This document shows, piece by piece, positions 3,811 through 36,981 of a stretch of 64,000 nucleotides of DNA. Source of the DNA: Verrucomicrobiia bacterium. Lineage in GTDB: Bacteria; Verrucomicrobiota; Verrucomicrobiia; Limisphaerales; JADLHS01. Below the pieces are notes generated by a model. That model was not told where the DNA came from. It searched no databases and saw only the letters and a list, made by a program, of their open reading frames with translations. Every line of letters starts with the position of its first letter. The first letter of the stretch is position 1. The stretch is taken from the NCBI GenBank assembly GCA_023953615.1, contig JAMLJH010000002.1:396592-460591 (forward strand). The letters are read 5' to 3'. The position numbers and the translations under genes were made by a program.

Positions 3811-3969
3811 TTTTTTGCCGCCGCCCGGGCTGCGGTCGTGAGGAACCGACTGCCCCGGGTGGCGCGCAAAATAAGACGGGTCGGGGCACGGAGTGAAGGG
3901 GCGACTGAACGGGAGCGGAGAACAATCCGTTGGCTGCGCAGCGGCGCCAACGAACAGTAGAGATTTTCG

Positions 3970-5886: not shown

Positions 5887-6155
5887 AACCACATGAGAAT
5901 ATGAATCCAAACAGTATCTCCCATCGGTTGTTTGCCGCGGCGTTAAGTCAGGTGCCCGCCGGGGTCGCGAAAGGGGCGGAGCGGAGCCCGGATGCCGCGC
6001 GGCGGAAGGAAGTGGTCCGTCGCGAATTGCCGGCTCCCGAGGTGGCGGCGGCAAAATCCGCGGACTGGTCCTGGAGCGGTTGGCAGCATCCGATGCTGTG
6101 ACGTCGGGTGGCTCGCCGCAGCGGACCGGCGCAGCGGATGAATTCGGGGTGAAGA

Positions 6156-8815: not shown

Positions 8816-9212
8816 AGCCGTCCCAGCAACAATCAACGTGGTTCAGTTGGAACAGACGCGTTCAAAACGAGCTTTCCTGCTTGCGGCGACGGGCTGGCGT
8901 TGTTAAAAAATTCAGCGAAACGGCGCCGTTTTCCGAGCGAAGGTTGAAGGAGACGATTACCGGTTTTGTGATGGTTCCACTTCGAGAATTTTTCGCGATG
9001 TTAAATTATTGCGCAAATCCATACGAAGTGGGACAAATCAATTAGTGGTGGTGCGTTGAAACCGCACCACAACATGCACGACAAATTGGAAGGTGGGTTG
9101 GTGCGAGCCGACCCGTTTGACGGAAGCACGGAAATGAATTTGTTGTCGCTCTTGTTGAGGCGGGAGTGGACAACTGAAAATTAACCAAATTAAACCTCAA
9201 TGAAAGGACGCG

Positions 9213-23212: not shown

Positions 23213-23585
23213 ATCAAGCCTTTGGATTGAATGATATGCGCTCCGGCAACCGGTCCGGGGCGGGCGCCAAGCTGACGGATGGCGGAATCAATTTATCTGG
23301 CAACGGCTCGATCCAGGCCGCTGCCGGGCAGGTTTCGGTTTTGACGTGCGAGGTCATCATACCGGCTTTCGTTTACCCGTGGCGGTTGTGGCTTGTGCCG
23401 GGAACAGCACACGAACGGGGAAACGACGCAACCTTTATCGCACAGGGTTCAGTTATTGTCGAGAACGGTTTCGGGATTTTGAAAATTACCTGGTCCGAGG
23501 TGAATGAAGCTTATCCCGATGGCGGCTCGGTGGTGTCGGCCCAGCATCGCTACGAACTATCGAGACGGTGGTTTGTCGTGGTGGC

Positions 23586-24350
23586 TCAGGTGCCGGCGGC
23601 CACGATGACTTCGATGCCTTGAGCGCGCAATTGCGTTACCAAGTCGCTCGGAGCTTGGTGATCGGTGACGATGGTGTGGATGCGGGCCAGATCGCTGAGC
23701 GACGATACCGAGCGTCGTCCGAATTTGGTGTGATCGAGGCACATGATCACTTTGGCCGCCGCGCGCATCATGGCGCGTTGAATATCAATCAATAAACCGT
23801 GTGAGTTGGTTAATCCATCCGGGGTGATGCCGCCCGCGCTCATGATTGCCACGTCCGCGTGAATCTTGGCAAAAGCTTCCACGGCGAGTGGTCCGACCAA
23901 CACGCCGAGGCGCGGATAAATCACGCCGCCACTTACCACGAGTTCCACTTTGCCCGCGGCCGAGTAGAGGTTGGCAACCGGCAGGGAATTGGTCACGATC
24001 TGCGGAGATTTGTCTTCCAGATACTTGGCGACGCAGAAGGTGGTGGTGCCGGCGTCAACGATGACACTTTGGTTGGGTTTGATCAGTTCGGCACAGGCGC
24101 GGCCGATGGCTTCCTTGGCTTCCAACTGATAGGTCTCCCGCGTGGAGAAGGTAAATTCGTCCGACTTGGGCACAATAATCCGCGCGCCGCCATGGGTGCG
24201 CTTCACCGTGCCCGCCGTTTCGAGCGCCGTCAGGTCGCGGCGCACGGTGGATACGGACGAGCCGACGTATTTTGCCAAATCTTCCAATGCGGCAAACTCG
24301 ACCTCTTGCAGGTAGGCTTCCAGACGGTGTTTTCGCTCTTCTGCCGTCAT
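23586..24350 (-). CDS. DeoR family transcriptional regulator
   Basis: HTH segment (LEDLAKYVGSSVSTVRRDLTALE) plus a DeoR C-terminal sugar-binding domain. It is divergent from the BMC operon, with ATG at 24350. Confidence 0.9.
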   Translation of the reverse strand: MTAEERKHRLEAYLQEVEFAALEDLAKYVGSSVSTVRRDLTALETAGTVKRTHGGARIIVPKSDEFTFSTRETYQLEAKEAIGRACAELIKPNQSVIVDAGTTTFCVAKYLEDKSPQIVTNSLPVANLYSAAGKVELVVSGGVIYPRLGVLVGPLAVEAFAKIHADVAIMSAGGITPDGLTNSHGLLIDIQRAMMRAAAKVIMCLDHTKFGRRSVSSLSDLARIHTIVTDHQAPSDLVTQLRAQGIEVIVAAGT

Positions 24351-24397
24351 TTTGAAGTGTATCGTGATAGATGTTGGAAGATTTTGCAAGATTTTAG

Positions 24398-24425
24398 TTG
24401 ACGGTTGATTAAAAATAATCAGAAT
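24398..24425 (+). promoter_or_regulatory. Candidate BMC-operon promoter (TTGACG-N16-CAGAAT) with an embedded palindrome TGATTA-N4-TAATCA
   Basis: The palindrome at 24406-24421 lies inside the promoter spacer in the deoR/pduL divergent region. This is a candidate DeoR operator. Confidence 0.4.
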
Positions 24426-24426
24426 A

Positions 24427-25113
24427 GTGCAAGTTATGGCTGTTGCTGCCCCTGTGCCTCATCGAGCAGTTATCGAACACATGGTTCGTCAGGCGGTTTA
24501 TTCGCGCCTGGGTAAACCACTTCCCCGGATGGCGACCGCTCCTCACCCGCTCGTGGTCAACATCAGCGCGCGGCATTGTCATCTCACTGAAGCGGCGGTG
24601 GAACAGTTGTTTGGCAAAGGGCATAAACTTACGGTTCATAAATGGCTCTATCAGGAAGGGCAGTTTGCCGCGAAGGAGACGGTGACCTTGATCGGGCCGC
24701 GCAGTCGGGTGATTTCCAATCTGCGCATCCTCGGTCCGTGCCGGAGTCTGAATCAGGTGGAGCTATCTTACACGGATGCAATCGCGCTGGGGTTTGAGAT
24801 TCCGCTGCGGTTATCCGGAAACATTGACGGCACTCCGGGTGCGATGTTGATGGGGCCGGCCGGTTTTTTTGAGATGGACCAGGGCATCATTCGCGCGTTG
24901 CGGCACGTTCACATGAGTCCGGTGGATGCGGAATTTTACGGGGTGAAGAATGGCGGCGCGATGAAGTTGAAGATTGGCGGAGATTGCGGGATCACGTTGG
25001 ACAAGATGTTGTGCCGCGTGGACCCGAGTTTCAAACTCGAGGTTCACATTGACACCGATGAAGGCAATGCCTGCAACCTGCAGCCCGGTACGCCGGTGGA
25101 ACTGCTGAAATAG
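24427..25113 (+). CDS. pduL: Phosphate acyltransferase PduL
   Basis: Duplicated PduL fold (NISARHCHL..., RHVHMSP..., HIDTDEGNA) and an N-terminal amphipathic helix (AVIEHMVRQAVYSRL) resembling an encapsulation peptide. The ATG at 24436 is a possible start. Confidence 0.9.
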   Translation: MQVMAVAAPVPHRAVIEHMVRQAVYSRLGKPLPRMATAPHPLVVNISARHCHLTEAAVEQLFGKGHKLTVHKWLYQEGQFAAKETVTLIGPRSRVISNLRILGPCRSLNQVELSYTDAIALGFEIPLRLSGNIDGTPGAMLMGPAGFFEMDQGIIRALRHVHMSPVDAEFYGVKNGGAMKLKIGGDCGITLDKMLCRVDPSFKLEVHIDTDEGNACNLQPGTPVELLK

Positions 25114-25139
25114 AATTTAAGCGCAGAAATTACAGAAAA

Positions 25140-25868
25140 ATGAAATTCCAAAGGGACCAGGCTTTTGATGTTCAATTCGATAGAATTGAAGGTCTTCGCT
25201 GGTACCCTTATGTGGGGAAGAACTTCGCCAAAAGCGAGGCGCGGATAATGATTTTTGCGCACAATATCCCCATACCTGCAAAGGACTACGACGCCAAGTT
25301 GGAGGAATGGAAAGCGAAAGACGCTTGGGCAACGTCCGAGACGATTGAAGAATATACCTATTGTCGTGGATGGTGGACGAAAACCTTCCGAGCTTTTCTG
25401 AAGGGAGCGGTTGGGTTGCAGAAAGATTTTGACGAGCAGTCGGATGTTGAAATCCTCAATAAAGTCGAATCGTTTATCAAACGGATCTCTTACGCCAACT
25501 TTATTCAAGGTTTGGTCAAGAGCGAAACACAAATTGCAATAGCCAAGCCAGAACAAATTGAGTTGAGTATAAAAGTTAACCGTGAAATTCTCAAAGTTCT
25601 TGGCGTCACTCACTGTATCTGTTGGGGCAAACCTGTTTACGAATATGTTCAGAGAATGGAAGGCTTCAGACTACTTTCCAAAACCGCCCTCGAAAAAAGC
25701 GGCTTTTCATCTTGTTCGCTCGATGTTGGTAATGGAATCGTGATGCGATGTCTGCGCGTTTATCATCCATCCATGCCTGGGTTCAGCCCGTTTAGGGTCG
25801 AGACCCAGTCAATCATTTCAAATTTTTTATCAATCAAAGCCTCCAATCCAATGCAACTGGCTACATAA
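25140..25868 (+). CDS. Hypothetical protein with weak uracil-DNA-glycosylase-superfamily-like motif order
   Basis: 242 aa in an AT-rich insert. Motif order is RIMIFAHNIP / YANFIQGLVK / VYHPSMPGF, which resembles UDG-fold families. This is a by-eye call only. Confidence 0.3.
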   Translation: MKFQRDQAFDVQFDRIEGLRWYPYVGKNFAKSEARIMIFAHNIPIPAKDYDAKLEEWKAKDAWATSETIEEYTYCRGWWTKTFRAFLKGAVGLQKDFDEQSDVEILNKVESFIKRISYANFIQGLVKSETQIAIAKPEQIELSIKVNREILKVLGVTHCICWGKPVYEYVQRMEGFRLLSKTALEKSGFSSCSLDVGNGIVMRCLRVYHPSMPGFSPFRVETQSIISNFLSIKASNPMQLAT

Positions 25869-25883
25869 CGGCCAAGAATAATT

Positions 25884-26132
25884 ATGAGGTACTATTGTCG
25901 ATATTGCGGTTCATCCTTTGCGAGCGTCTCTGCTCTAACCGCTAACACGTGTCATCGTCATCCAGACGGCGCAGCCAAGGGAAAGCATGCTTTATACGAG
26001 GGCGGCGAAAAGAAGCAATACACTTGCAAATTTTGTGGTTCAAATTTCTCGAGCCTATCGCTATTGACGATAAATACGTGTTACCGTCACCCAAATGGCA
26101 GCGGCAAAGGTAAACACGAAGCTGCATTGTGA
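25884..26132 (+). CDS. Small tandem Cys/His finger protein (2 repeats)
   Basis: 82 aa with two copies of Y-x-C-x2-C-G-S-x-F-x-S-x-S-x-L-T-x-N-T-C-x-R-H-P-[DN]-G-x2-K-G-K-H. Confidence 0.6.
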   Translation: MRYYCRYCGSSFASVSALTANTCHRHPDGAAKGKHALYEGGEKKQYTCKFCGSNFSSLSLLTINTCYRHPNGSGKGKHEAAL

Positions 26133-26176
26133 TTTTTTATTTAACCGTCAATTAACACCCAAACAGGAAAAAACAA

Positions 26177-26464
26177 ATGAGTGAAGCATTAGGAATGATT
26201 GAAACCAAAGGCTACGTTGGCAGCGTGGAAGCCAGCGACGCCATGGTCAAGGCGGCCAACGTCACGTTGGTCAAAACGGTGCCCATCGGCGGCGGACTGA
26301 TTACCGTCCTCGCCAAGGGCGATGTCGGCAGCGTCAAAGCGGCGGTGGATGCCGGATCCAAGGCGGCGGCCAAGGTGGGCGAGCTGATCAGTTCCCACAT
26401 CATTGCGCGGCCGCACGAGGATTTGTTAAAGGCGTTCGTCAATAGCGGAGTCGCCGCCAAGTAA
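26177..26464 (+). CDS. BMC-H shell protein (PduA/EutM-type, PF00936-like)
   Basis: [27 protein letters not shown]...HIIARPH. Confidence 0.93.
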
Positions 26465-26490
26465 CCAGTTTAACCACAACCGAAACCATT

Positions 26491-26769
26491 ATGGCACAAC
26501 AAGCAGTTGGAATGATTGAATGTAAAGGGCTTTGCGCGCTCATGGAAGCGTGCGATGCCGCACTCAAGGCCGCGAATGTCACCATGACCGGCTGGGAAAA
26601 AGTCGGCAGCGGTTACGTGACCGGATTTTTCCGGGGCGACGTCGCCGCCGTGAAAGCCGCCACCGATGCCGGCGCCGCCGCCGCCGCGCAAGTGGGGCAG
26701 GTGATCAGCGTCCAGGTGATTCCGCGGCCGCACGATGATCTGGGAATTTTGGGCAAATGGCTGCAATAA
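26491..26769 (+). CDS. BMC-H shell protein
   Basis: [27 protein letters not shown]...VIPRPH. Confidence 0.92.
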
Positions 26770-26848
26770 ATGCGGAACGCGGAATTCGGAGTGCGGAATT
26801 AGCTGCGCGCCGAGTTCATTCCGCACTCCGCAATCTGCACTCCGCATT
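26769..26848 (+). repeat. Compound palindromic element filling the BMC-H/ackA gap
   Basis: Perfect 13-bp stem (26787-26799 with 26818-26830) plus an outer 8-bp stem (26769-26776 with 26841-26848). It runs from the shell-gene stop codon to the nucleotide before the ackA GTG. Confidence 0.75.
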
Positions 26849-28111
26849 GTGAAGATTCTCGTCGCCAACATTGGCAGCACCTCGCTGAAGTGGCGGTTGT
26901 TCGATTTCGCGAACACCGTGGCTGCGACATCCCGTCGCCGTGCGGGGGACGCGACGCTCCCGTCGCGTGGTTCTGGCGGCGAAGCGTCACTGCCGCGCCT
27001 GTTGCACAAAGGCGGCTTCGAGCGCGTGGCTGATTATTCGCAGGCAATCGAGGGTTGCTTGACGCAGCTCAAGGATGCCGGCGCGTTGGCCAGTGAAAGT
27101 GAACTCACGGCGGTAGGCTTCAAAACGGTGATTGCCAAGAACGTCACCGGTTGCGTGCGGCTCGATGAACGCGTGCTGGGCGCGATGGAGGCTTACAACG
27201 GTCTCGCTCCGGCGCATAATCCACCGTACATCACCGGCATCCGCCTGTTTGGAAAACGCGTGCCGGGGGTGCCGTTGGTGGGACTGTTCGAGACGGCGTT
27301 TTATCAATTCGCACCCGAGGCGATGATGCGTTACGCCGTGCCGCAAGCCTGGCTCGACATTGGCATTCGCCGTTGGGGATTTCACGGCGCGAGCCATAAA
27401 TACATTGCCGAACGATCGGCGGAATTGCTGGGCCGCGATGACGTCGCCGAACGCGTGCGCAACCTCTACGTCAACGGTGGCCAGACTCCGGTCAACGATC
27501 CGCCGTTGCGCGTGATTTCGTGTCACCTCGGCGGCAGTTCGAGCATCACCGGAATTTACAACGGCGTGGCGATCGGCACCAGCATGGGCATGAGTCCGCA
27601 ATCGGGTTTGCCGCAAAACAATCGGGTCGGCGATCTGGATGCGGAAGCGATTCCCTACGCGGTGAAAACGCTGGGACTCACCATCGAGGAAGCGCAGCGT
27701 CAACTGACCCGGGAATCTGGGTTAAAAGGTTTGAGCGGCGCCTCGAACGACATGCGCGATGTGGCGGCTGCGGCGGAGCAGGGGAAGGTGGAGGCGCGGC
27801 TGGCCGTGGAAGTGTTTGTGGCGAGCGCCCGACACTGGATGGGCGGCTACTTTTTCGAAATGGGCGGCGCGGACGCTTTGGTGTTCACTGGCGGCATTGG
27901 CGAGAACCGGGCGGAGATCCGTCGCGCCATCTGCGCGAACCTGACCGGATTGGGCATCGAACTGGATCCGGCTTTGAATAACGCACCCCCGGCGCACGAA
28001 GCCACGATCAGCACCGCCAATTCGCGGGTTAAAATCATGGTCGTGCCCACCAATGAAGAACTCGTGGTGGCCCGGGAAACCAAACGCTTATTGGAAACAG
28101 CAAGAAATTGA
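26849..28111 (+). CDS. ackA: Acetate (acyl-phosphate) kinase
   Basis: VKILVANIGSTSLKW, FHGASH and EELVVA motifs. The GTG start at 26849 was chosen by family N-terminus, although the ORF opens at 26735. Confidence 0.9.
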   Translation: MKILVANIGSTSLKWRLFDFANTVAATSRRRAGDATLPSRGSGGEASLPRLLHKGGFERVADYSQAIEGCLTQLKDAGALASESELTAVGFKTVIAKNVTGCVRLDERVLGAMEAYNGLAPAHNPPYITGIRLFGKRVPGVPLVGLFETAFYQFAPEAMMRYAVPQAWLDIGIRRWGFHGASHKYIAERSAELLGRDDVAERVRNLYVNGGQTPVNDPPLRVISCHLGGSSSITGIYNGVAIGTSMGMSPQSGLPQNNRVGDLDAEAIPYAVKTLGLTIEEAQRQLTRESGLKGLSGASNDMRDVAAAAEQGKVEARLAVEVFVASARHWMGGYFFEMGGADALVFTGGIGENRAEIRRAICANLTGLGIELDPALNNAPPAHEATISTANSRVKIMVVPTNEELVVARETKRLLETARN

Positions 28112-28144
28112 AATTCATACGTAATCAACAAACAAAATAAAACT

Positions 28145-28426
28145 ATGCCTCAAGCAATTGGATTAATTGAAACGCGCGGACTCGTGGCTCTCGTGGAGGG
28201 CACGGACGCGATGCTGAAAGCGGCCAACGTGGAACTCGTCGGCCCCATGACCCAGGTCGGCAACGCTTTGGTCACCGCGTGTGTGGTGGGCGACGTGGCC
28301 GCGGTCAAGGCGGCGACGGATGCCGGCGCGCAAGCCATCAAAGCCATCAAAGGCGAACTGGTCAGCGTGCATGTCATCGCCCGTCCGCACAACGACGTGG
28401 CGGCGGTGTTGCCGAAGAAGAAGTAA
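28145..28426 (+). CDS. BMC-H shell protein
   Basis: QAIGLIETRGLVALVEGTDAMLKAANV...VIARPH. Confidence 0.93.
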   Translation: MPQAIGLIETRGLVALVEGTDAMLKAANVELVGPMTQVGNALVTACVVGDVAAVKAATDAGAQAIKAIKGELVSVHVIARPHNDVAAVLPKKK

Positions 28427-28428
28427 GC

Positions 28429-28496
28429 GTGGCTGCGCTCGTGAGAGCGCGGCTGACTTGCATGTAAAATGCGGCGCTCTCACGAGTCGCCGCCAC
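28429..28496 (+). promoter_or_regulatory. Long intra-operon stem-loop after the third BMC-H gene
   Basis: 13-bp perfect core (28438-28450 with 28474-28486), extendable to ~22 bp with a few mismatches. It lies between the shell-gene stop and the BMC-P start. Confidence 0.65.
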
Positions 28497-28508
28497 AAAG
28501 GCAAAACT

Positions 28509-28820
28509 ATGTTCTTGGCCAAAGTCGAAGGCTCGGTGGTCGCCACCAAGAAAGACCGGAACATGTCGGGGCGCAAACTGTTGTTGCTTCGTCCGCAACT
28601 CGTGGATGAAAAAGACCCGACGAAATTTCGCCCCGGCGCGAACACCATCGTGGCCGTGGACGCGCTCGGCGCGGGGTTGGACGAGATGGTGATGTTCACG
28701 CAGGGCAGCAGCGCGCGGCTCGCGCCCGGCATGAAAGACGCCCCGGTGGATGCCGTCATCATCGGCATCGTGGACAGCGTGGACGTGCTGGGGAAACAGA
28801 TTTATAGCGGTAGAACGTGA
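28509..28820 (+). CDS. BMC-P pentameric vertex protein (EutN/CcmL family)
   Basis: MFLAKVEGSVVATKK...AVDALGAG...AVIIGIVDSV. Confidence 0.9.
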   Translation: MFLAKVEGSVVATKKDRNMSGRKLLLLRPQLVDEKDPTKFRPGANTIVAVDALGAGLDEMVMFTQGSSARLAPGMKDAPVDAVIIGIVDSVDVLGKQIYSGRT

Positions 28821-29239
28821 GTAAACAAAACAACAATCAAGTTGTAGGAAACATTGGTCTTTACTACGTGTGCTATCGCTTGTCTCAACGTGGTTGGAAT
28901 GTGATGCCAACTGCTAGAAACGCGCGAGGGATAGACGCGTTGATTTATAGCCAGGATGCAACACGGGTTAAAACTATCCAAGTTAAGGCGCTCTCTAGGA
29001 GAAGTCCGGTGCCTCTCGGTTCCAACCTGGACAATCTTTTCGGAGATTTCATCGTTGTTTGCCAGAGTGTAACGACGAAGAAGCCAGCCTGTTATGTTCT
29101 TACGCCAGAAGAAGTCAGGCGATTAGTGCATAAAGGAGAAAAGGACGGCAAAACCAGCTTTTGGTTGCAGCCAAAGCATTACGAAAAAACTGAGTTTCAT
29201 GAGAACTGGGACAGGATAGGTTCGGGATCCAATGCTTGA
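28817..29239 (+). CDS. PD-(D/E)xK-type nuclease-fold protein (putative)
   Basis: 140 aa with GNIGLYYVCYRLSQRGWNV...ARGIDALI...IQVKA, giving the D...(Q)xK motif order. It is AT-rich, and its GTG start overlaps the BMC-P stop (GTGA). Confidence 0.45.
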   Translation: MSKQNNNQVVGNIGLYYVCYRLSQRGWNVMPTARNARGIDALIYSQDATRVKTIQVKALSRRSPVPLGSNLDNLFGDFIVVCQSVTTKKPACYVLTPEEVRRLVHKGEKDGKTSFWLQPKHYEKTEFHENWDRIGSGSNA

Positions 29240-29248
29240 TCAAGTAAG

Positions 29249-29280
29249 TTTATGAGCACAGCGAGCGAGACTTTGAACCG
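29249..29280 (+). pseudogene. Orphan duplicated 5' end of the aldehyde dehydrogenase gene
   Basis: tttATGagcacagcgagcgagactttgaaccg matches 30091-30122 at 27 of 32 nt (MSTASETLNR versus MSTVNETLIR). Confidence 0.7.
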
Positions 29281-29356
29281 GAATGCTCCAAGCTTTGAAA
29301 GATATTTCAAAGGGGGGGGACAAATTGTCCCCCTCCTTTCTAAATTCCAATCTAAT

Positions 29357-29776
29357 TCAAATGTGCTTCGGTGGGGGGTGCCGTGCGCGGAGAATTTCTT
29401 CGTGACGGATGGCTTGGGCCACGTCGCGGTTCAAATTCAAAGCGGCAACGGTGGCGCGTCCAGTCGGACTGATGCCGACCACGCGGACGCCGTCCCAGCG
29501 GAAATGCAATCGCCAAGAATCACGGCGGGGACTGAACAATCTGACTTCATTCCCCGTTTTGGGATCAATGGCTTTCATTCGCGCTCCTTTGCGAAGCGAG
29601 CACGAAACACACGCCAGCGCCAGATTGTTCAGCGTCGTTGCGCCACCAGCATCCGTCGGGATGACGTGGTCAATATGAAAAGTCGCCTCTTGGGAAACCT
29701 GCGAAAGTCCGCAGTACTCGCAACGATTTCCGGCACGCTGGATGGCCTGACGCCGCAGTTGCGCCGGGATGGTCAT
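29357..29776 (-). CDS. HNH endonuclease
   Basis: CEYCG...HIDHVIP...GGATTLNNLALACVSCSLRK motif set. Confidence 0.85.
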   Translation of the reverse strand: MTIPAQLRRQAIQRAGNRCEYCGLSQVSQEATFHIDHVIPTDAGGATTLNNLALACVSCSLRKGARMKAIDPKTGNEVRLFSPRRDSWRLHFRWDGVRVVGISPTGRATVAALNLNRDVAQAIRHEEILRARHPPPKHI

Positions 29777-29780
29777 GTGA

Positions 29781-30005
29781 TCAGTGGCGTCCGTTGCTCA
29801 ATCGTTGCGAACGCAAACGCAACAGGGAAAGCAGGTCAGCCAATTCAACCAACCCCTCAGCCTCCCGCTTTTCGGCGAGTGTCAGGCGATTCCCTTGGTC
29901 TTGCTTGTCCAGCAACGCGTGCAGCCGTTTCTCCACGCCTTTTGGCAGGCGAAACTTTGCCAGATCGCCCGGCATCTCAACTATCAGTTCGATGGCTTGA
30001 GACAT
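29781..30005 (-). CDS. Small helical protein upstream of and co-oriented with the HNH gene
   Basis: 74-aa ORF ending 4 nt before the HNH start. Family not recognised. Confidence 0.5.
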   Translation of the reverse strand: MSQAIELIVEMPGDLAKFRLPKGVEKRLHALLDKQDQGNRLTLAEKREAEGLVELADLLSLLRLRSQRLSNGRH

Positions 30006-30093
30006 ATTTACTTTCCGTTTCTGAGGCCGAATTTAGCAGAAGTGGGTCGGGGTGTCCAAGCTCGGAATTCCCTTCGTTAAAAAGCAACTATTT

Positions 30094-31590
30094 ATGAGCA
30101 CAGTGAATGAAACTTTGATCCGCGACGTGGTGGCGGAAGTGTTGGGACGCATCGGCGGCGCGACTGCCTCCAGCACCACGACGGCGAATCCAGCTCCGGC
30201 CAAAAGTGAATCGCGTAATGTGCGTGCGCCGCAGGTGACCGTGCCGGCGTCGCGCGGAAAATTCGGTGTGTTTGCCACGGCGAACGAGGCGTGCGCGGCG
30301 GCTCAGGAAGCTTTTTTGTTGTTGCGAGAAAAGGGCGTGGCGGCGCGGCGCAAGATCGAGGGAATCGTCAAGACGTTGGCGGAGAAAAACGCCGAGGCTT
30401 GGGGCAAACTCGAGTTGGATGAAACGAAAATTGGTCGGCTCGATCACAAGATTGAGAAGCTCAAAATCATCCGGCTGGTGCCCGGTGTGGATTGGCTGCG
30501 ACCGGAAGCTTTGAGCGGCGATCACGGCATCACCCTGGAGGAATTCACGCCGTTTGGCGTGGTGGGCGCGATTACGCCAAGCACCCATTCCATTCCCACG
30601 TTGAGTGGCAACATTGTCAACATTGTCGCCGCCGGGAATGCGGTGGTGTTCAATCCGCATCCCAGCGCGGCGCGTTGCGCGGCGGCGGCGGTGCGAACTT
30701 ACAACGAAGCGATTTATCGCGAGACCGGCATCGAGAACATCGCGTGTCTGGTGGAGCAACCAACGCTGGAATCCTTCGACGCGCTTTGCAAAAACGAGTA
30801 CACGAAATTGCTGCTGGTTACTGGCGGTCCGGGTGTGGTGAAAGCGGCGATGCAAACCGGCAAGCGCGCCATTTGTGCCGGACCGGGGAATCCGCCGGTG
30901 CTCGTGGATGACACCTGCTGCGCGACTCGCGCGGCGAAAGCGATCATTGCCGGGGCCGCCTTTGACAACAACCTCCTCTGCATTGGCGAGAAGGAGGTTT
31001 TCGTTTTGGACAGCGTGGCGAACAAGTTGATGCAGCGCCTGGCCGAGAACGGCGCGGTGAAGTTGAGCGACGCGCAATTGGAAAAACTGACGCAGGCGGC
31101 GTTCACCTTCAAGCCGGGGCAGGGCGGCGGTTGTTCTCACGCCAGCGTGAACAAGGAATTCATTGGCAAGAATCCTGAAGTGCTGGCTCAAGCGGCCGGA
31201 CTGAATCTGCCGATGGGCACCCAGTTGTTGTTCGCCGAAACGTCCGCCGACCATCCCTTCGTGCAGGAGGAACAGATGATGCCGTTTCTGCCGATTGTGC
31301 GGGTGAAGAGCGTGCGCGAAGGCATCCAACTGGCCGTGCAGGCCGAGCACGGTTATCGCCATACCAGCGTGATTCATTCGCATGACGTGGAGCACATGAC
31401 CGCGATGGCGCGGGCGTTGGACACCACGTTGTTTGTAAAGAACGGTCCTTCACCCGCAGGCCTGGGCCTGGGTGGCGAAGGTTATTTGAGTTACTCCATC
31501 GCCACCCCAACTGGTGAAGGCGTGACCAATCCGCGCACCTTCACGCGCGTCCGGCGATGTGTGATGGTGGACAATCTGAGAATTTATTAA
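30094..31590 (+). CDS. CoA-acylating aldehyde dehydrogenase (PduP/EutE-like)
   Basis: ALDH fold with the catalytic Cys context (NNLLCIGEKE), an N-terminal amphipathic helix (TLIRDVVAEVLGRIGG) and an Ala/Thr/Pro linker resembling an encapsulation peptide. Confidence 0.88.
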   Translation: MSTVNETLIRDVVAEVLGRIGGATASSTTTANPAPAKSESRNVRAPQVTVPASRGKFGVFATANEACAAAQEAFLLLREKGVAARRKIEGIVKTLAEKNAEAWGKLELDETKIGRLDHKIEKLKIIRLVPGVDWLRPEALSGDHGITLEEFTPFGVVGAITPSTHSIPTLSGNIVNIVAAGNAVVFNPHPSAARCAAAAVRTYNEAIYRETGIENIACLVEQPTLESFDALCKNEYTKLLLVTGGPGVVKAAMQTGKRAICAGPGNPPVLVDDTCCATRAAKAIIAGAAFDNNLLCIGEKEVFVLDSVANKLMQRLAENGAVKLSDAQLEKLTQAAFTFKPGQGGGCSHASVNKEFIGKNPEVLAQAAGLNLPMGTQLLFAETSADHPFVQEEQMMPFLPIVRVKSVREGIQLAVQAEHGYRHTSVIHSHDVEHMTAMARALDTTLFVKNGPSPAGLGLGGEGYLSYSIATPTGEGVTNPRTFTRVRRCVMVDNLRIY

Positions 31591-31759
31591 CCACGGATGG
31601 ACACAGATGAACACGGATTAGTACGGGACGCTGGCTTTGGCCCGCTTCAGTGTTCGCGCGTCAACGGCGTTCGAAAATTGAAGCGACCTGAAGGCCGCGC
31701 TCCTGAGCGTTCCGGTTTCATCCGTGTTTATCCGTGTTTATCCGTGTTTATCCGTGGTT
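31589..31759. repeat. MITE-like element with ~30-bp terminal inverted repeats built from 10-nt subrepeats
   Basis: The left arm 31589-31618 matches the reverse complement of 31730-31759 at 26 of 30 nt. The right arm holds about four tandem tccgtgttta units. It fills the gap from the ALDH stop to 8 nt before the next start. Confidence 0.7.
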
Positions 31760-31766
31760 TGATTTT

Positions 31767-32045
31767 ATGTTATTGGCGCGCGTCGAAGGCAACATCGTGG
31801 CGACCCGGAAACATCCGAGTCTCAACGGTTGGCGGCTGGTGATTTGTCAACCGGTCAATGCCGACGGTCAGAACGCAGGCACGCCGCAGGTGGCGATTGA
31901 TGCGTTGGGCGCCGGGATGCATCAGCAGGTGGTGATTTCGTCCGACGGTTCGGCGGCTCGTCGCGCCGTGGGCGATGCGCAAAGCCCCGTGCGTTGGTTG
32001 ATCGTTGGAATTGTGGACGAGCGTGAACCGGGAGTGCGCGTATGA
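31767..32045 (+). CDS. BMC-P vertex protein (EutN/CcmL family)
   Basis: MLLARVEGNIVATRKH...AIDALGAG...LIVGIVDE. Confidence 0.88.
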   Translation: MLLARVEGNIVATRKHPSLNGWRLVICQPVNADGQNAGTPQVAIDALGAGMHQQVVISSDGSAARRAVGDAQSPVRWLIVGIVDEREPGVRV

Positions 32046-32347
32046 AACTGGGCACGGTCATCGGTCGCGTTACGTTGAGCAAGACGATCAAGTCATTTGA
32101 AGGCGGGCGGTTCTTGATCGTAAGCCCGTTTTCCCGCGAACAATACGCCGCTGGATTGGCGGCCCCGCCGACGCTGGGCAAAGACCCGAGTCTGGTGGTG
32201 TATGACGCCATCGGCGGTGGCGTGGGGCAGGTGATTGGTTATGTGGAAGGGCGCGAAGCGGCGCAGCCGTTTGTCGTGCCGACGCCAGTGGATGCGATCA
32301 ATGCCGCGCTCGTGGACGACATGTTTTATCGCCCGTGGTCAGGGTGA
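32042..32347 (+). CDS. BMC-P vertex protein (EutN/CcmL family), divergent
   Basis: MKLGTVIGRVTLSK...VVYDAIGGGVGQ...AINAALVD. It overlaps the previous gene by 4 nt. Confidence 0.8.
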   Translation: MKLGTVIGRVTLSKTIKSFEGGRFLIVSPFSREQYAAGLAAPPTLGKDPSLVVYDAIGGGVGQVIGYVEGREAAQPFVVPTPVDAINAALVDDMFYRPWSG

Positions 32348-32372
32348 TCGGGGTTGGAAGGACTTTTAAGTT

Positions 32373-33431
32373 ATGAAAAATGTCATCAGTTTGAAGGATG
32401 TGGAACGGATGCAACGCGAGGGTCGCAGCCTGAGTAGTTTGCCGGCCGACGCCATTTTAACGCCTTCGGCGCGCGATTTTCTGAACGACCTTCGCTCGGT
32501 CGTGCCTCAGCCCTCCACTCTAGTCAAGTCCGCCGGCGTCGCCGCGGCCAAACCGCTGCCACCGCGTCAACCGATCAATTCCAAGTCGTCGCCCGCCGAG
32601 CTGGAGACGTTTTTCAATTCACCCTACGCGCACAGTCTCAAGGAGCAGATTTGCCAGATGGGGCAGCGCTTGTGGCAGCGCGCTTATGTGGACGGTAACG
32701 GCGGGAACATGGCGATTCGCGTGGGAGAGGACGTGGCAATTTGCACGCCGACGCTGGTGAGCAAAGGCGCGTTGAAGCCGGAAGACATGTGCCTCGTGGA
32801 TTTTGAGGGCCATCAATTGCTCGGCATGAAAAAGCGCACGAGCGAAATTCTCATGCACTTGCAGATGATGAAACGGCAGCCCAAGGCAATCGCCACCTGC
32901 CATTGTCATCCGCCCTACGCGACCGCCTTTGCGGTGGCGAACGTCGCGCCGCCCACCTGCATGTTGCCCGAGTTTGAAGTGTTTTGCTCGGTCGGCGTCG
33001 CGCCCTATCGCACGCCGGGCACCTCGGACATGGGCAAGCTGGTGGCGGATTTGACGGATCAATACAACACGATTTTGATGGCGAATCACGGCGTGGTGAC
33101 CTGGTCGCACAACAATCTCGAAGAAGCCTACTGGCGCATGGAGATTGTGGAAGCGTATTGCCGCACGATTGTGGTGGCCGGGCAATTGGGCCATCCGATC
33201 AACACCTTCACCGGACCGCAAATGAAGGATTTGTTGAACATCAAGGAGAAGCTGGGTTTCGTGGACCCGCGGTTCGAGATGAAGGAATGTGAGTTGTGCG
33301 ACAGTGGCGAATGGCGTCCGGGCGTGACGTGCGCCGTGCCGCGCCCCGAGGCGGCGGGCGCGGGCTTTGATCCGGAAGCGGAAAAGGCGGTGCAGGCCAT
33401 CACGGACCAAATTCTCAAGCAGATGAAATGA
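32373..33431 (+). CDS. Class II aldolase/adducin-family protein (fuculose/rhamnulose-1-phosphate aldolase-like) with terminal extensions
   Basis: The core has GNGGNMAIRV, HCHPPYATAF and MANHGVVTW. It also has a ~90-aa N-terminal extension with a Pro/Ser linker and a C-terminal amphipathic helix (EKAVQAITDQILKQM). Confidence 0.85.
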   Translation: MKNVISLKDVERMQREGRSLSSLPADAILTPSARDFLNDLRSVVPQPSTLVKSAGVAAAKPLPPRQPINSKSSPAELETFFNSPYAHSLKEQICQMGQRLWQRAYVDGNGGNMAIRVGEDVAICTPTLVSKGALKPEDMCLVDFEGHQLLGMKKRTSEILMHLQMMKRQPKAIATCHCHPPYATAFAVANVAPPTCMLPEFEVFCSVGVAPYRTPGTSDMGKLVADLTDQYNTILMANHGVVTWSHNNLEEAYWRMEIVEAYCRTIVVAGQLGHPINTFTGPQMKDLLNIKEKLGFVDPRFEMKECELCDSGEWRPGVTCAVPRPEAAGAGFDPEAEKAVQAITDQILKQMK

Positions 33432-33784
33432 GCAGTTGGGTTTTGCAATTAAGTGCCAGTGTGGGGCGGGCGACTTGGGGGTTGCTGGCCTTGTTACTGG
33501 CAGTTTCCGGTTGCGGATCACTCGTGGCTCGTTCAGAACGCAAAGCCAATCCGGATGGTGATTTTTCCAAAGTATATGGTGGTGTGCAGTATGACTGGCA
33601 ATTTATAGCGCATCCGATCGCCAACAGCCGCGCATTGGGTGCTCCCGCAGCGATGGGGTTTTTAGGAACGATTGAAGGGCTGGTTGATTTGGGGCCATCG
33701 TTGGTTCTGGATACGCTGCTGTTGCCTTTTGACCTGACGTGGAAACCGACGCCGTTGCCAACCGAAGAGGCGTCATCGCACTAA
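33428..33784 (+). CDS. YceK/YidQ-like small lipoprotein
   Basis: Lipobox LLAVSGC and a YGGVQYDW motif. It overlaps the aldolase stop by 4 nt. Confidence 0.5.
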   Translation: MSSWVLQLSASVGRATWGLLALLLAVSGCGSLVARSERKANPDGDFSKVYGGVQYDWQFIAHPIANSRALGAPAAMGFLGTIEGLVDLGPSLVLDTLLLPFDLTWKPTPLPTEEASSH

Positions 33785-33806
33785 TCAGTTGGCTTGTGGT
33801 TTTACA

Positions 33807-33910
33807 ATGAAATCCCTCGATCAAAAACTGGCTGAAATTAAAGCGAATCCCGCTTCGCGCGCGTTCATTCTGGCCGACGCCAAAGACGCCGACATGGCGT
33901 ATGGCGTGCG
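33807..33910 (+). pseudogene. Orphan duplicated 5' end (~104 nt) of the gene at 34732
   Basis: Near-identical to 34732-34838 (MKSLDQKLAEIKANPASRAFILADAKDADMAYGVR versus MTKSLDQKLAEIKANPNSRAFILADAKDADMAYGVR). Homology stops abruptly after ggcgtgcg. Confidence 0.85.
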
Positions 33911-33990
33911 GGTGATTAAGGAGCAGATTTCCAGTCAAACGAAGTATAACGTGCCCTTCAGTTTTTTGACAGGCATGGTATCGTTGTCAC

Positions 33991-34251
33991 GTGAATGCTG
34001 TAACCATTGAAATTCCCGAGGGCTTCAAGAAGAGCTTTGGCGAGACGGACGAGGAAATCCGCCGCAACGCCAAACTCGAACTCGCCATCGTGATGTATCG
34101 CGAGGGCAAGTGGTCCACGGGCAAGGCTGGGAAATTCTGTGGAATGACGCGCATCGCATTCATGGACTTGCTGCGAGATCGCAAAGTTCCGATGCCGTAC
34201 ACAAGAGAGATGTTGGAGCAAGACCTGGCTTATGCCCGCAGTTGTAGCTGA
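33991..34251 (+). CDS. UPF0175-family antitoxin-like protein
   Basis: 86 aa with ...LELAIVMYREGKWSTGKAGKFCGMTRIAFMDLL, the family-typical HTH-like C-terminus. It is paired with a DUF3368 gene. Confidence 0.7.
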   Translation: MNAVTIEIPEGFKKSFGETDEEIRRNAKLELAIVMYREGKWSTGKAGKFCGMTRIAFMDLLRDRKVPMPYTREMLEQDLAYARSCS

Positions 34252-34735
34252 CTCATCTCCGATTGTTTATCTGGCGCGGATTAACCGGCTTGAACTGCTC
34301 CGGCGGCTTTATTCGGAGGTGTTTATTCCGGCGGCCGTGTGGCGTGAAGTGGCGGTCGAAGGTGCGGAGCTTATCGAAGGCCGGTCACTCCGGGCTGCTG
34401 CGACCGCGGGCTGGATTCGGGTGGATAATTCCACAGCGGCGTCCGCGCACCAAAATCCGCTGCTTACGCAACTGGACGATGGCGAGCGGGAAGCCATTGC
34501 GCTGGCGATCAGGCTGGAGGCGCTGCTTATTATTGACGAAGCGGAAGGCCGGGCGGTGGCTCTGAAGCTTAGCGTTAAATTGACCGGAACCTTGGGGGTT
34601 CTTGTTCAGGCCATCCGGCGGGGATTCCTGCCGCGCCTCAAGCCTGAGCTTGACCGCTTGATGGGCGAAACAAATTTCCGTTGCACGGATGAACTGATTG
34701 CGACGGCACTGAAGGATGTTGACGAGAAACCATGA
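34232..34735 (+). CDS. DUF3368-type PIN-like nuclease (toxin-like partner)
   Basis: The VVADSSPIVYLARINRLELLRRLY..VFIPAAVWREV N-terminus is typical of DUF3368. Its stop overlaps the ATG of the downstream gene (ATGA). Confidence 0.7.
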   Translation: MPAVVADSSPIVYLARINRLELLRRLYSEVFIPAAVWREVAVEGAELIEGRSLRAAATAGWIRVDNSTAASAHQNPLLTQLDDGEREAIALAIRLEALLIIDEAEGRAVALKLSVKLTGTLGVLVQAIRRGFLPRLKPELDRLMGETNFRCTDELIATALKDVDEKP

Positions 34736-35982
34736 CCAAATCCCTCGATCAAAAACTGGCTGAAATTAAAGCGAACCCCAATTCGCGCGCGTTCATTCTA
34801 GCCGACGCCAAAGACGCCGACATGGCGTATGGCGTGCGCGCCACCGGTCCGCGCTCCTACTTGGCCCGGCGCGGTGCGCGCCCGGCCCAATTCTCCCCGG
34901 AGGTTTGGTCTCGGGAAGAGTTTGGCTTTCGCAATCTGCCGGAGTTCTTGGACATCATTCGTGAAGTGACGCACCAGGGGTTGGTGGACATCATGTTGAT
35001 GTCGGCCTACGTGAACGAACAACTCACGATCAAGGAAGGCTTGTTTCAAAATTCCCACGTTACGCCTGCCGCTCGCGCGAACGATACCACCGATGTCTGG
35101 GCCGCGCGGCACGGTTGTTACATGGGTGAAGCGTCGCAACCGTTTCGGACGGCGAGCATTGATCACATTCAATGCGGCGAAGTGGAATGTGAGCGGGGTG
35201 CGACTCCCGATTTTCCCGGCGCCAATCTGGGACTGTATTCGATCACTTACGTGAACGATTTGGAACAGGACCGCGAGGCGTTGCTGGCTTACAAGGAATT
35301 TCGCGAGGAGGCGGAGCGCAAGCAGTTCCGGCACTTTTTGGAAGTGTTCGATCCCAACGTGGACAGCGGCATTCCTGCGGAAAACCTGGGCGAGTTCGTC
35401 AACGACAACATCCTGCGCACCCTGGCGGGCGTGCCGGAGGCGGGGCGACCGTTGTTTCTGAAGGTGGTGTATCACGGTCCGCGCGCCATGGAAGAACTTT
35501 GCCAATACGATCCCAACATGGTGGTCGGCATCATGGGAGGCAGCGCGGGCACGACGCATGATGCGTTCAAGTTGATTCATGACGCGCAAAAGCACGGCGC
35601 GCGGGCGGCGTTGTTTGGTCGCAAAATCAACAACGCGGAGCACCAACTGGCGTTTATCGAAATGCTGCGCTTGATCACCGACGGCAAAATCAGTCCCGAG
35701 GAGGCCGTCCGTGCCTATCACGGCGTGCTGCAAGGCAAGGGCATCAAGCCGCAACGCGCGTTGGCGGATGATTTGCAACTAACCGGGCAGTCCATGAATT
35801 ATGCCGGGACGGTGCCCGCGTCGGACGGTCGCAGCGGATCAGCGCGAAGTGAGATGAGTCGTCCTGCAAGTTCGACCGGCACCGCAACCGACTGGCCGCG
35901 ACAGGCCGATGGTTCGCCGGACTTTGCCCGGATGAATTCGCAGCAGCGATTCGCCTACGATCGGGCGCGGTTGCAGCTCTGA
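34732..35982 (+). CDS. Conserved hypothetical protein, possibly a DeoC/LacD/FbaB-like class I aldolase TIM barrel
   Basis: 416 aa. ILADAKDADM, PLFLKVVYHG and GGSAGTTHDAF...GARAALFGRKI resemble the DeoC/LacD family layout. The C-terminal ~70 aa are low-complexity. Assignment is tentative. Confidence 0.35.
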   Translation: MTKSLDQKLAEIKANPNSRAFILADAKDADMAYGVRATGPRSYLARRGARPAQFSPEVWSREEFGFRNLPEFLDIIREVTHQGLVDIMLMSAYVNEQLTIKEGLFQNSHVTPAARANDTTDVWAARHGCYMGEASQPFRTASIDHIQCGEVECERGATPDFPGANLGLYSITYVNDLEQDREALLAYKEFREEAERKQFRHFLEVFDPNVDSGIPAENLGEFVNDNILRTLAGVPEAGRPLFLKVVYHGPRAMEELCQYDPNMVVGIMGGSAGTTHDAFKLIHDAQKHGARAALFGRKINNAEHQLAFIEMLRLITDGKISPEEAVRAYHGVLQGKGIKPQRALADDLQLTGQSMNYAGTVPASDGRSGSARSEMSRPASSTGTATDWPRQADGSPDFARMNSQQRFAYDRARLQL

Positions 35983-35984
35983 GA

Positions 35985-36941
35985 TCAGCGTACGCCCGCC
36001 TCGTCGAGTTGGAGTCGTCCGCGATTTGCATCCAACGTGGCCCGAACGCCGACGGGCAAGGTGGCGTTCATCGCCACGTGACCGAAGGGCAGGCCGGTAA
36101 CGATCGGAATTTTTAACGGCAGCAGGCGTTCGCGGAAAACATCCTCCAAAGTCTGACGATATTCCTTGGCGGTTTGGGCGCGCGGATCCTGACAGTTGGC
36201 GTTGATTCCGATGGCAATACCCGCGACCTGTTGCAACCGCCCGCAATTCAGCAGGTGGGTCAACAGACGATCCCAGCGATAAGGTTCTTCCCCCACGTCT
36301 TCGAGGAAGAGGATGGCGTTTTTGAAGTTCGGTTGCCACGGGGTGCCGATCAGCGTGTTCAGAATGGTGATGTTGCCGCCGATGAGCCGACCGCGGGCCA
36401 TGCCGCGCCGTAGAATTTTCACCGTTTTACCCGGATAGCCGGTGGCGATGTCGTTTTGCGGCGCCGCGGAAGCGAGGGTACGCAAAAAACTTTGCACCGT
36501 GAACGCGGGGAGCCGTTTGAGCGCAAAGTCGGAGTTCAACATTGGCCCGTGGAAGGAGATCAAACCGGCCTTGGATAGAAACGCGCCGTGCAGTGAAGTG
36601 ATGTCGCTGTAGCCGATGAAAATTTTCGGATTGGCCCGGATCAAACGGTAGTTCAGCCGGGGCAGTAATCGCGCGGTACCGTAACCGCCCCGCACGCAGA
36701 TGATCGCGTTCACCTGGCGATCGGTGAACATCCGCATCAAATCATCGGCGCGCTCGCGGTCGGAGCCGGCGAGGAAACCGAGGCGTTTGTGCGCGTTCGG
36801 CGCGAGCTTGGTTCGGTAGCCGAGTTTTTCGAGCACGGCAATGGCGCGGTCCACATTTTTCGGATCGGGCGGCGCGCTGGCGGGAGCGACGATGCCCAAG
36901 GTGTCACCGGGATTCAGGCGAGGCGGAAAGACAAGTTTCAT
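35985..36941 (-). CDS. ldcA: LD-carboxypeptidase (peptidase S66, LdcA/MccF-like)
   Basis: LNPGDTLGIVAPAS, GYSDITSLH and FGH motifs. The ATG at 36941 lies inside the longer ORF that runs to 36998. Confidence 0.8.
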   Translation of the reverse strand: MKLVFPPRLNPGDTLGIVAPASAPPDPKNVDRAIAVLEKLGYRTKLAPNAHKRLGFLAGSDRERADDLMRMFTDRQVNAIICVRGGYGTARLLPRLNYRLIRANPKIFIGYSDITSLHGAFLSKAGLISFHGPMLNSDFALKRLPAFTVQSFLRTLASAAPQNDIATGYPGKTVKILRRGMARGRLIGGNITILNTLIGTPWQPNFKNAILFLEDVGEEPYRWDRLLTHLLNCGRLQQVAGIAIGINANCQDPRAQTAKEYRQTLEDVFRERLLPLKIPIVTGLPFGHVAMNATLPVGVRATLDANRGRLQLDEAGVR

Positions 36942-36981
36942 CAGTAAAAATTGGCAATGGGGGTCCGAAGGGAAGGCGCCG

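Follow-up and report, generated by a model that had tools for sequence, protein, structure and literature searches.

Why does an otherwise compact metabolic operon carry several small nuclease- and toxin-like genes exactly at the boundaries between its own genes? The question is raised by a stretch of 64,000 nucleotides (nt) from a Verrucomicrobiia bacterium (assembly GCA_023953615.1, contig JAMLJH010000002.1, positions 396,592–460,591, forward strand), hereafter called the window, in whose own coordinates positions are given. Its region from 23.5 to 36.0 kb is a sugar-degrading bacterial microcompartment (BMC) operon of the Planctomycetes/Verrucomicrobia (PVM) type, with the gene set of that type complete according to Pfam: BMC-H, BMC-P, PduL, acetate kinase, aldehyde dehydrogenase (AldDH), class II aldolase and DeoR. 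An earlier note on this DNA had claimed four foreign-looking blocks (i–iv) inside the operon, and all four are present where it placed them. Beyond its list, we found direct repeats that flank some of the blocks, a fifth insert and two palindromic elements. In our reading, to which we assign a probability of about 60%, small accessory or selfish genes have settled at the boundaries of this operon in repeated, independent events, those flanked by repeats having arrived by homology-anchored integration.

The locus was compared with 80 Limisphaerales loci (GTDB) retrieved with the aldolase as the query (labels of the form L### are locus or contig numbers), which also place the bacterium of the window in this order (Verrucomicrobia subdivision 3), and the Pfam families of the core genes were read on identical Logan contigs. 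Core gene order is kept across the 80 loci, and the shell proteins are 90–100% identical among these species. Native gaps in the relatives are short, namely approximately 40–50 nt between PduL and BMC-H, 12–29 nt between BMC-P and AldDH (in most of 58 cases) and 7–27 nt between the aldolase and a 416-aa gene, compared to 1063, 1273 and 1300 nt at the expanded junctions of the window. In locus L010 (~92% nucleotide identity), blocks i–iii are missing and another, Cys-rich gene of 151 aa occupies BMC-P|AldDH. Given that the junctions are compact in relatives, that L001 lacks block i and that L010 lacks blocks i–iii, all four blocks are read as insertions and not as ancestral members of the operon. 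The same cassettes stand at the same junctions in the distant relatives L184, L186, L182, L085, L105, L113, L166, L060 and L073; to judge from these loci, blocks ii–iv are long-standing, polymorphic residents and not unique to this genome. This comparison of orthologous loci upholds the view of the blocks as inserted DNA.

The operon had further been described as a hotspot of boundary inserts, and this description extends order-wide. Among 614 junction observations, 463 were native and 151 expanded, the latter either by palindromic elements of 70–230 nt belonging to many families (100 observations) or by gene-sized inserts (51 observations). Expansion was uneven, with 0 of 50 cases at BMC-H1|BMC-H2, 29 of 58 at BMC-P|AldDH and 32 of 70 at AldDH|BMC-P. 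The comparison of the window with L010 revealed three large indels, all inside the operon, whereas the 7.7 kb downstream had none. Whether strains, sister species or more distant members of the order are compared, inserts are gained, lost and replaced at a small, recurring set of junctions. Within the window, 7 of the 12 junctions of the microcompartment operon are expanded; in the division and cell wall (dcw) cluster no more than 3 of about 12 are, and in the che operon none of about 6, these two clusters being a small control.

With regard to their content, the four blocks of the window agree with the label of nuclease/toxin cassettes: the HNH gene and the UPF0175/DUF3368-PIN pair that had been called were borne out by profiles, and the uracil-DNA-glycosylase (UDG) fold, the PD-(D/E)xK fold and the Cys/His fingers as predictions. 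In relatives, Pfam families of the cargo comprise PDDEXK_3, 23S_rRNA_IVP, Y1_Tnp, Bro-N, GmrSD_N together with HNH, and DUF2513, and here the label is too narrow, as metabolic genes are also found (Pro_CA with a Glyoxalase-family gene, and Ldh, i.e., lactate/malate dehydrogenase). A beta-carbonic anhydrase gene occupies AckA|BMC-H in L055, L057, L061, L044, L072 and L079, with the glyoxalase-family gene after it in five of them (not in L079); it is probably a real metabolic accessory and not a selfish cassette. No flanking direct repeats were found at the 51 gene-sized inserts of relatives, except for those of the repetitive extragenic palindromic (REP) or miniature inverted-repeat transposable element (MITE) type around 23S_rRNA_IVP, Y1_Tnp and Ldh. 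No single insertion machine covers all the cargo, which in the window ranges from the UDG-fold and finger genes, the PD-(D/E)xK gene, a 74-aa gene with HNH and the UPF0175/PIN pair to a lipoprotein gene and REP/MITE-like elements. In line with the claim that transposases, integrases and tRNAs are missing, profile scans detected no transposase or integrase domain in any cassette open reading frame (ORF), a tRNA scan found nothing and an Rfam scan gave no match.

A footprint of insertion is found at blocks iii and iv, where the end of a neighbouring gene is present twice. At block iii, an orphan AldDH start (positions −3 to +29 of the gene) forms the left direct repeat at 29249–29280 on the plus strand (repeat D16), and the functional AldDH start forms the right one at 30091–30122, also on the plus strand, with 27 of 32 positions identical. 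The module between them lies on the minus strand. It is made up of the left arm (30006–30090), which has a sigma70-like promoter match at 30058–30030 (a consensus match only), the 74-aa partner gene, first in the module and with no known domain (29781–30005), and the HNH endonuclease gene (29357–29776; 139 aa; Pfam HNH, E 1.3e-12, and HNH_5, E 1.3e-09), in which the motif residues CxxC...HIDH...NNL...CxxC are present. On the 3′ side of the HNH gene, a 13-bp G+C-rich hairpin at 29309–29340 (−26.3 kcal/mol on the plus strand and −24.8 kcal/mol on the minus strand) is likely the terminator of the module, and L085 has a homologous hairpin. The 12-nt gap that had been noted at 29240–29251 exists, but the next ATG is the orphan AldDH start and not the start of a cassette gene. 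A plus-strand ORF of 281 aa (29252–30097) was dismissed as an artefact, as it begins at that orphan start, runs antisense through the HNH module and has no Pfam match. A match of the peptide FKGGGQIVP to a Bro-N protein of L045 falls on the terminator hairpin; that it might be a relic of an earlier cassette was considered as a possibility only.

At block iv, the duplicated piece stems from the 416-aa gene (34732–35982, plus strand), which has weak class I aldolase-family matches. Its orphan 5′ end (codons 1–35; 33807–33911, plus strand) holds the left direct repeat (33810–33910; D2), while the right one (34738–34838, plus strand) is located within the functional gene; the repeats are 101 nt long, 96% identical and correspond to codons 2–35. 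The direct repeats of the window had z values of 16.5 and 94. The cargo on the plus strand at 33991–34735 consists of a UPF0175 antitoxin gene (33991–34251; E 1.3e-19) and a DUF3368/PIN toxin gene (34232–34735; E 2.2e-12, both from Pfam), which overlap by 20 nt with the antitoxin first. The pair also corresponds to the PADLOC candidate system PDC-S70 (toxin, E 2.6e-43; antitoxin, E 9.7e-06), and as it matches both family profiles it is considered a putative type II toxin–antitoxin pair. The functional 416-aa gene has a new start, ATGACC, in overlap with the stop codon of the PIN gene, which confirms the ATGA overlap reported at 34732. Its orphan start opens an ORF of 67 codons overlapping the UPF0175 start, and this ORF would couple the pair to translation of the operon. 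In L010, block iv is present with the same 101-nt repeat, whose copies differ by two changes, both synonymous; the copies in the window differ by two synonymous changes and by one codon at a residue that is variable among orthologues. In L060 and L073, diverged UPF0175/PIN pairs without repeats occupy the junction of the aldolase with the 416-aa gene, so that 3 of the 80 GTDB relatives (L010, L060 and L073) have a toxin–antitoxin pair at this junction. At blocks iii and iv, the cassettes were inserted into pre-existing gene ends, and the intact gene was rebuilt beside them.

The 74-aa and HNH genes form a widespread two-gene unit. More than 419 relatives of the HNH gene are present in metagenomes, in 78 of 80 metagenome loci the 74-aa gene immediately precedes HNH, and 683 clusters of 74-aa homologues, mostly from Verrucomicrobia, were recorded. 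Repeats were sought by comparing the two 350-nt flanks of the module, with displaced windows as the control. Flanking direct repeats of 31–123 nt (80–100% identical) were detected in 13 of 70 HNH loci, compared to 1 of 76 displaced controls. The downstream copy begins 1–32 nt past the HNH stop codon in 8 of the 13 repeat loci, and 46–110 nt separate the upstream copy from the 74-aa start, again in 8 of the 13 loci; these positions near the ends of the module indicate a unit of ~0.75–0.85 kb. No terminal inverted repeats or conserved ends were evident in the module arms by reading of the unaligned sequences. The duplicated pieces are ordinary gene ends, i.e., the 3′ end of a neighbouring gene, stop codon included (L103, L131 and L136), or of a GNAT gene (L170), and the 5′ end of AldDH (the window, L113 and L184).

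Mismatches between the two copies were tallied by codon phase, with reading frames fixed by stop codons (independently for L131 and L103). Third codon positions accounted for 17 of 19 mismatches in L131, 7 of 8 in L170 and 2 of 2 in both L103 and L181, and within codons 9–19 of the L184 repeat all five differences are synonymous. This third-position share of ~86%, compared with about half expected even if the intact copy had evolved under selection, implies that both copies resided in working genes for nearly all of their divergence. An orphan left to decay in place would change at all three positions; one copy is thus evidently allelic, having apparently come with the cassette from the orthologous gene of another genome. 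Differences of this synonymous type point to homology-anchored integration and not to duplication of the transposase type.

The module is also resident at BMC-P|AldDH in other genomes, in the same antisense orientation in L085, L105, L113 and L166/167, and at that junction in L182 and L184 as well. The joints at this one junction differ: the window repeat spans −3 to +29 with a 76-nt arm that holds the hairpin, the repeat in L113 covers codons 4–22 at 8 nt from the HNH stop codon, and the repeat in L184 measures 57 nt. In L105, L166 and L182, no repeats were found at the module. A solitary 74-aa gene between BMC-P and AldDH in L185 (3501–3713), from which HNH is gone, represents a decayed module. 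All of the closest checked homologues of the window's 74-aa gene are located at BMC-P|AldDH, and most members of the HNH family stand at sites unrelated to that junction. In a 200-column alignment, operon-resident modules formed two clades (bootstrap 81 and 100), and all six were monophyletic in only 9 of 100 replicates. With moderate confidence, this suggests at least two colonisations of BMC-P|AldDH, or one old colonisation followed by rearrangements.

Blocks i and ii carry no such duplication. They are AT-richer than their flanks, as had been claimed, with windowed GC of 0.42–0.48 across 25000–26200 and 0.45–0.47 across 28800–29400, against a window mean of 0.586 (standard deviation 0.041); the blocks themselves have a GC of 0.44–0.46 and a GC at third codon positions (GC3) of 0.47, compared to a GC3 of 0.66–0.76 in core genes. 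Block i (25119–26142, plus strand) follows the PduL phosphotransacylase gene (24427–25113, plus strand; PTAC by Pfam, and kept in relatives) and is swapped or missing in L001 and L010, the latter having 89 nt at this site. In L001, a Logan contig, a 284-nt inverted-repeat element takes the place of 25119–26142. To the right of the site, L001 and the window are 99.97% identical (2 single-nucleotide polymorphisms (SNPs) in 7.7 kb), whereas 26 SNPs are evenly spread over the 1.76 kb to the left (1.5%); this contrast places the block i polymorphism at the edge of a recombination tract. Further upstream, L001 has a 397-aa gene with no assigned function (525–1718) that precedes DeoR and replaces 124 nt of the window (23235–23358).

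Two plus-strand genes make up block i. The product of the first (c1a; 242 aa; 25140–25868) gave no Pfam or profile match, but its AlphaFold model (predicted local distance difference test (pLDDT) 92) retrieved exclusively members of the uracil-DNA-glycosylase superfamily as top Foldseek matches, with a probability of ~1, yet with template-modelling (TM) scores of just 0.38–0.59 and ~10% identity. Among its homologues, H41-N42 and H209-P210 are invariant and S211 is nearly so, resembling UDG motifs A and B; on the basis of this model, the gene has a predicted UDG-superfamily fold and is a candidate glycosylase. The second gene (25884–26132; 82 aa) encodes two finger repeats, whose C2H2 matches are weak and slightly under the Pfam cut-offs. 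Neither block i nor the loci of c1a homologues have flanking direct repeats, and no block i homologues were found in the 80 GTDB relatives. Homologues of c1a and of the block ii gene occur elsewhere in unrelated surroundings, among them toxin–antitoxin/transposase islands and, for c1a, between ruvC and ruvA. The latter case is a UDG-fold homologue in L090, from a different bacterium (6001–6732), which has an ATGA overlap with ruvA and is a further instance of an insert at a gene boundary of a conserved operon. In L097/L098, a homologue of the finger protein (63%; 3747–3992) lies ~1 kb upstream of a UDG-fold homologue (5001–5696), in an island with HEPN/MNT and BrnT. The UDG-fold and finger genes may be loosely linked.

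Block ii is a single gene, c2 (28817–29239, plus strand; 140 aa; GC 0.46), whose GTG start overlaps the stop codon of BMC-P (28509–28820) in the GTGA that had been described at 28817. It gave no Pfam match, and a sequence search of solved structures was also without a match. Its model (pLDDT 92) matches the folds of the SPARDA DREN domain, I-Ssp6803I, Hjc and EcoRV (probability 1.0, TM 0.5–0.6; for the homing endonuclease I-Ssp6803I, TM 0.57–0.61). Together with the D...QxK pattern of its homologues (D40 and Q55 invariant, K57 nearly so), the model indicates a predicted nuclease of the PD-(D/E)xK fold. No c2 homologues were found in the 80 GTDB relatives; the closest one (82%) is in L186, between BMC-P and AldDH and with overlapping codons. 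The gene order in L184 is BMC-P, c2, orphan AldDH start, HNH, 74-aa gene and AldDH, and L182 has the HNH module without c2. No direct repeats flank c2 or the loci of its homologues.

Under the explanation that we favour, a cassette would travel between related genomes as DNA that includes the end of a neighbouring gene; once in a new host, this carried gene end would pair with its orthologue there and act as the homology anchor. The other end would be joined illegitimately, or a circle excised at the repeats would integrate by a single crossover. The old gene end would be left behind as an orphan, with the intact gene rebuilt next to the cassette. Events that broke an operon gene or its translation would be lost, a filter that would explain why the inserts sit precisely between genes, with stop and start codons in overlap. 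Repeat-less cassettes (blocks i and ii) would enter by ordinary double-crossover replacement, with the conserved flanking operon genes as arms. The undescribed boundary-targeted mechanism offered in the earlier note is not needed, since the footprint fits homology-anchored integration, a process that has already been described experimentally. A more specific and only tentative proposal, which we hold to be possible but on balance doubtful, is that the 74-aa and HNH genes constitute an undescribed selfish element that carries a portable anchor of 30–120 nt from the start or end of the neighbour gene and re-homes to the same boundary, the conserved operon being a preferred landing pad, colonised several times independently by such elements and by the toxin–antitoxin pair. 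A break could possibly be made by the module's own nuclease, and a circular form could possibly be excised at the repeats.

Several observations weigh against homology-anchored colonisation. Most HNH loci (57 of 70) show no repeat, and in the window the differences between the block iii repeats are three non-synonymous and one synonymous, so that this copy may have decayed after duplication in situ, or may be older and decayed. The route proposed for the repeat-less blocks i and ii is deduced only from the tract boundary in one strain comparison, the HNH nuclease is no more than a candidate as the agent of integration, and neither a donor molecule nor a circular form nor a transformation system was seen. 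Furthermore, only three relatives keep the flanking che genes, and in one of them, L018, the che junctions are expanded too (527, 82 and 77 nt, at places where genes overlap in the window). An enrichment of inserts specific to this operon is therefore unproven.

The last point bears on the possibility that nothing is special about this locus, i.e., that Limisphaerales genomes carry such inserts genome-wide and that an operon with many short genes merely offers many junctions. We regard this as conceivable, although we lean against it. The expanded che junctions of L018, the many families of palindromes that fill junctions and the c1a homologue inside another operon, ruvC–ruvA, are all as it would predict, whereas the excess of expanded junctions in the operon over the dcw and che clusters of the window, the restriction of the large indels with L010 to the operon and the recurrence of resident modules at one operon junction are not. 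That the cassettes are instead ancestral accessory genes, lost from most lineages by differential deletion without any insertion, appears improbable. Recurrence of the HNH module, c2 and the toxin–antitoxin pair at the same junctions would fit this view, as would a divergence similar to that of the core (HNH 58–77%, AldDH 73–77%) and the fact that deletions do happen (in the fifth insert of L010, and in L185, which lost HNH and kept the 74-aa gene). However, orphan duplicated gene ends prove insertion into pre-existing genes, blocks i and ii have a foreign composition, most of the 58 BMC-P|AldDH junctions are of native size, sister taxa hold different cassettes at one junction, and homologues of c1a and c2 occur in unrelated contexts.

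Two further alternatives assign the decisive role to a nuclease. If the HNH module were transposon-like, with staggered nuclease cuts giving rise to repeats as target-site duplications in situ, then repeats that abut the element, an encoded nuclease and the decay-like non-synonymous differences of block iii in the window would all follow. The variable length of the repeats, the missing transposase domain, the lack of evident terminal inverted repeats in the arms (read unaligned) and, above all, copy differences that are overwhelmingly synonymous in L131, L170, L103, L181 and L184, which neutral decay would not give, make this improbable as well. It is somewhat less improbable, though still unlikely, that the HNH protein, and perhaps also the PD-(D/E)xK protein, is a free-standing homing endonuclease that cuts the empty boundary and spreads by repair from the cassette-bearing copy. 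Such a process would account for presence/absence polymorphism at one precise site, BMC-P|AldDH, in many lineages, with most of the 58 junctions empty; for the location of the closest checked 74-aa homologues at that site and the two clades of resident modules; and for the likeness of c2 in fold and size to I-Ssp6803I. It would also fit the homology-anchor footprint if a break stimulates recombination. Classical homing nevertheless leaves no duplication, yet repeats were found in 13 of 70 loci including the window. Most family members occupy unrelated sites, and no homing system is known to have a counterpart of the conserved 74-aa partner. Finally, the idea, also raised in the earlier note, that toxin–antitoxin and nuclease cassettes are kept because addiction stabilises the operon found no support and is very improbable. 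The pair appears to be translationally coupled on both sides (by the orphan ORF, which runs into the start of the antitoxin gene, and by the ATGA between the toxin and the next gene) and is kept in both the window and L010, but most relatives keep the operon without any toxin–antitoxin pair, the cassettes themselves are lost or replaced, and a chromosomal operon has no segregation problem of the plasmid kind.

In addition to the four blocks, a DUF1375/YceK-like lipoprotein gene (Pfam, NCBIfam) is located at 33428–33784 on the plus strand, with an ATGA overlap with the aldolase gene. It has no match in the 80 relatives and is read as a fifth, clade-specific insert; in L010, it is internally deleted, with the first and last few codons left. 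No flanking direct repeats were found at this gene. Two palindromic elements complete the set, namely a REP-like palindrome at 26769–26848 (inverted repeat I3; −47.9 kcal/mol, z −7.2), between the second BMC-H gene and acetate kinase, and a MITE-like inverted-repeat element at 31588–31760 (I1, I2; −76.2 kcal/mol, z −7.6), between AldDH and the next BMC-P gene. The palindrome family of the latter, AACCACGGATG...CATCCGTGGTT, also fills the block i site in L001 (3487–3770). Junction palindromes of relatives (L010–L089), 70–230 nt long, are built of short tandem sub-repeats such as AAATCCGAAATCCGAA, TTCCAAGTTCCAAG and ATGACGAATGACGAA. In L044 and L072, an IS200-like Y1 transposase gene with hairpins on either side lies between AldDH and BMC-P.

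The remaining core genes of the operon are the DeoR regulator gene (23586–24389, minus strand), three BMC-H genes (26177–26464, 26491–26769 and 28145–28426), the acetate kinase gene, which ends at 28111, the AldDH gene (30094–31590, plus strand), two adjoining BMC-P genes (31767–32045 and 32042–32347) and the class II aldolase gene (32373–33431). Outside the operon, a low-GC gap of 398 nt in the dcw cluster (8816–9212), from mraY to a 245-aa gene, contains no obvious gene or palindrome, and no separate murD-like ligase gene is evident between mraY and ftsW; gene names in this cluster are provisional, as they were given from N-termini only.

If the favoured reading is correct, a co-transcribed metabolic operon can tolerate, and over long evolutionary periods keep, selfish nuclease and toxin genes that come and go at the boundaries within it, with selection filtering for frame and coupling. 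Gene-end duplications that differ synonymously would then be a signature of one-sided homologous cassette transfer in uncultured bacteria, a process otherwise known mainly from laboratory transformation and toxin-delivery loci, and the abundant, unannotated 74-aa and HNH module would be a candidate mobile unit. On the practical side, annotators of microcompartment loci should not take these genes for components of the pathway.

With regard to known systems, our literature search returned no prior description of cassettes in microcompartment operons, of HNH modules with gene-end duplications or of HNH toxin–antitoxin pairs. REP elements, bacterial interspersed mosaic elements (BIMEs) and MITEs sit in operons, along with REP-associated tyrosine transposases (RAYTs) of the IS200-like type. 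The palindromic junction inserts of 70–230 nt, including those at 26769–26848 and 31588–31760, and the Y1 transposase with its hairpins in two relatives resemble these elements, which explain the mid-sized class alone and not the gene cassettes. In T4-like phages, the free-standing homing genes of the seg and mob families act in co-infection, without gene-end duplication and without a conserved small partner. As in such intronless homing, small nuclease genes are here present or absent at the same site between conserved genes and may spread with their flanks, the cleavage being in our case a predicted one. Defence-gene hotspots share with this locus a variable cargo of nuclease, toxin–antitoxin and restriction-like genes between conserved genes and its turnover between strains (here PDC-S70, GmrSD-like and UDG-fold genes), whereas here only one or two genes are found per site, at several junctions of one co-transcribed operon, with translational coupling and no integrase. 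Like integron cassettes, the inserts are small, mostly promoterless genes in one orientation that rely on a host promoter; unlike them, they occupy several sites and not one attI, and no integrase is encoded in the cassette ORFs. Among the direct and inverted repeats reported for 23000–37000, none is common to all four blocks, although no attC-specific search was run.

The closest parallel is provided by type VI secretion system (T6SS) effector–immunity, Rhs and contact-dependent inhibition (CDI) loci, where the displacement of cassettes that leaves orphans behind has been proposed to result from homology-facilitated illegitimate recombination (Kirchberger et al. 2017, PMC5361080, with its references de Vries & Wackernagel 2002, Prudhomme et al. 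2002 and Meier & Wackernagel 2003). Transformation experiments have shown that such recombination occurs. As at those loci, a module here would enter beside a conserved gene that serves as a one-sided anchor, orphan remnants of the prior gene end are left, and double-crossover replacement would occur alongside. The differences are that the host locus is a metabolic operon, that the duplicated piece consists of 31–123 nt from the 5′ or 3′ end of an ordinary gene, that the cargo is a self-contained nuclease or toxin–antitoxin unit, and that one module family recurs at many unrelated genes. Taken together, known kinds of process appear to be combined at this operon, i.e., hotspot turnover of small selfish and defence genes, colonisation of operons by REP/MITE-type elements and homology-anchored capture of cassettes, and the fresh lead is the 74-aa and HNH module with its apparently allelic gene-end duplications.

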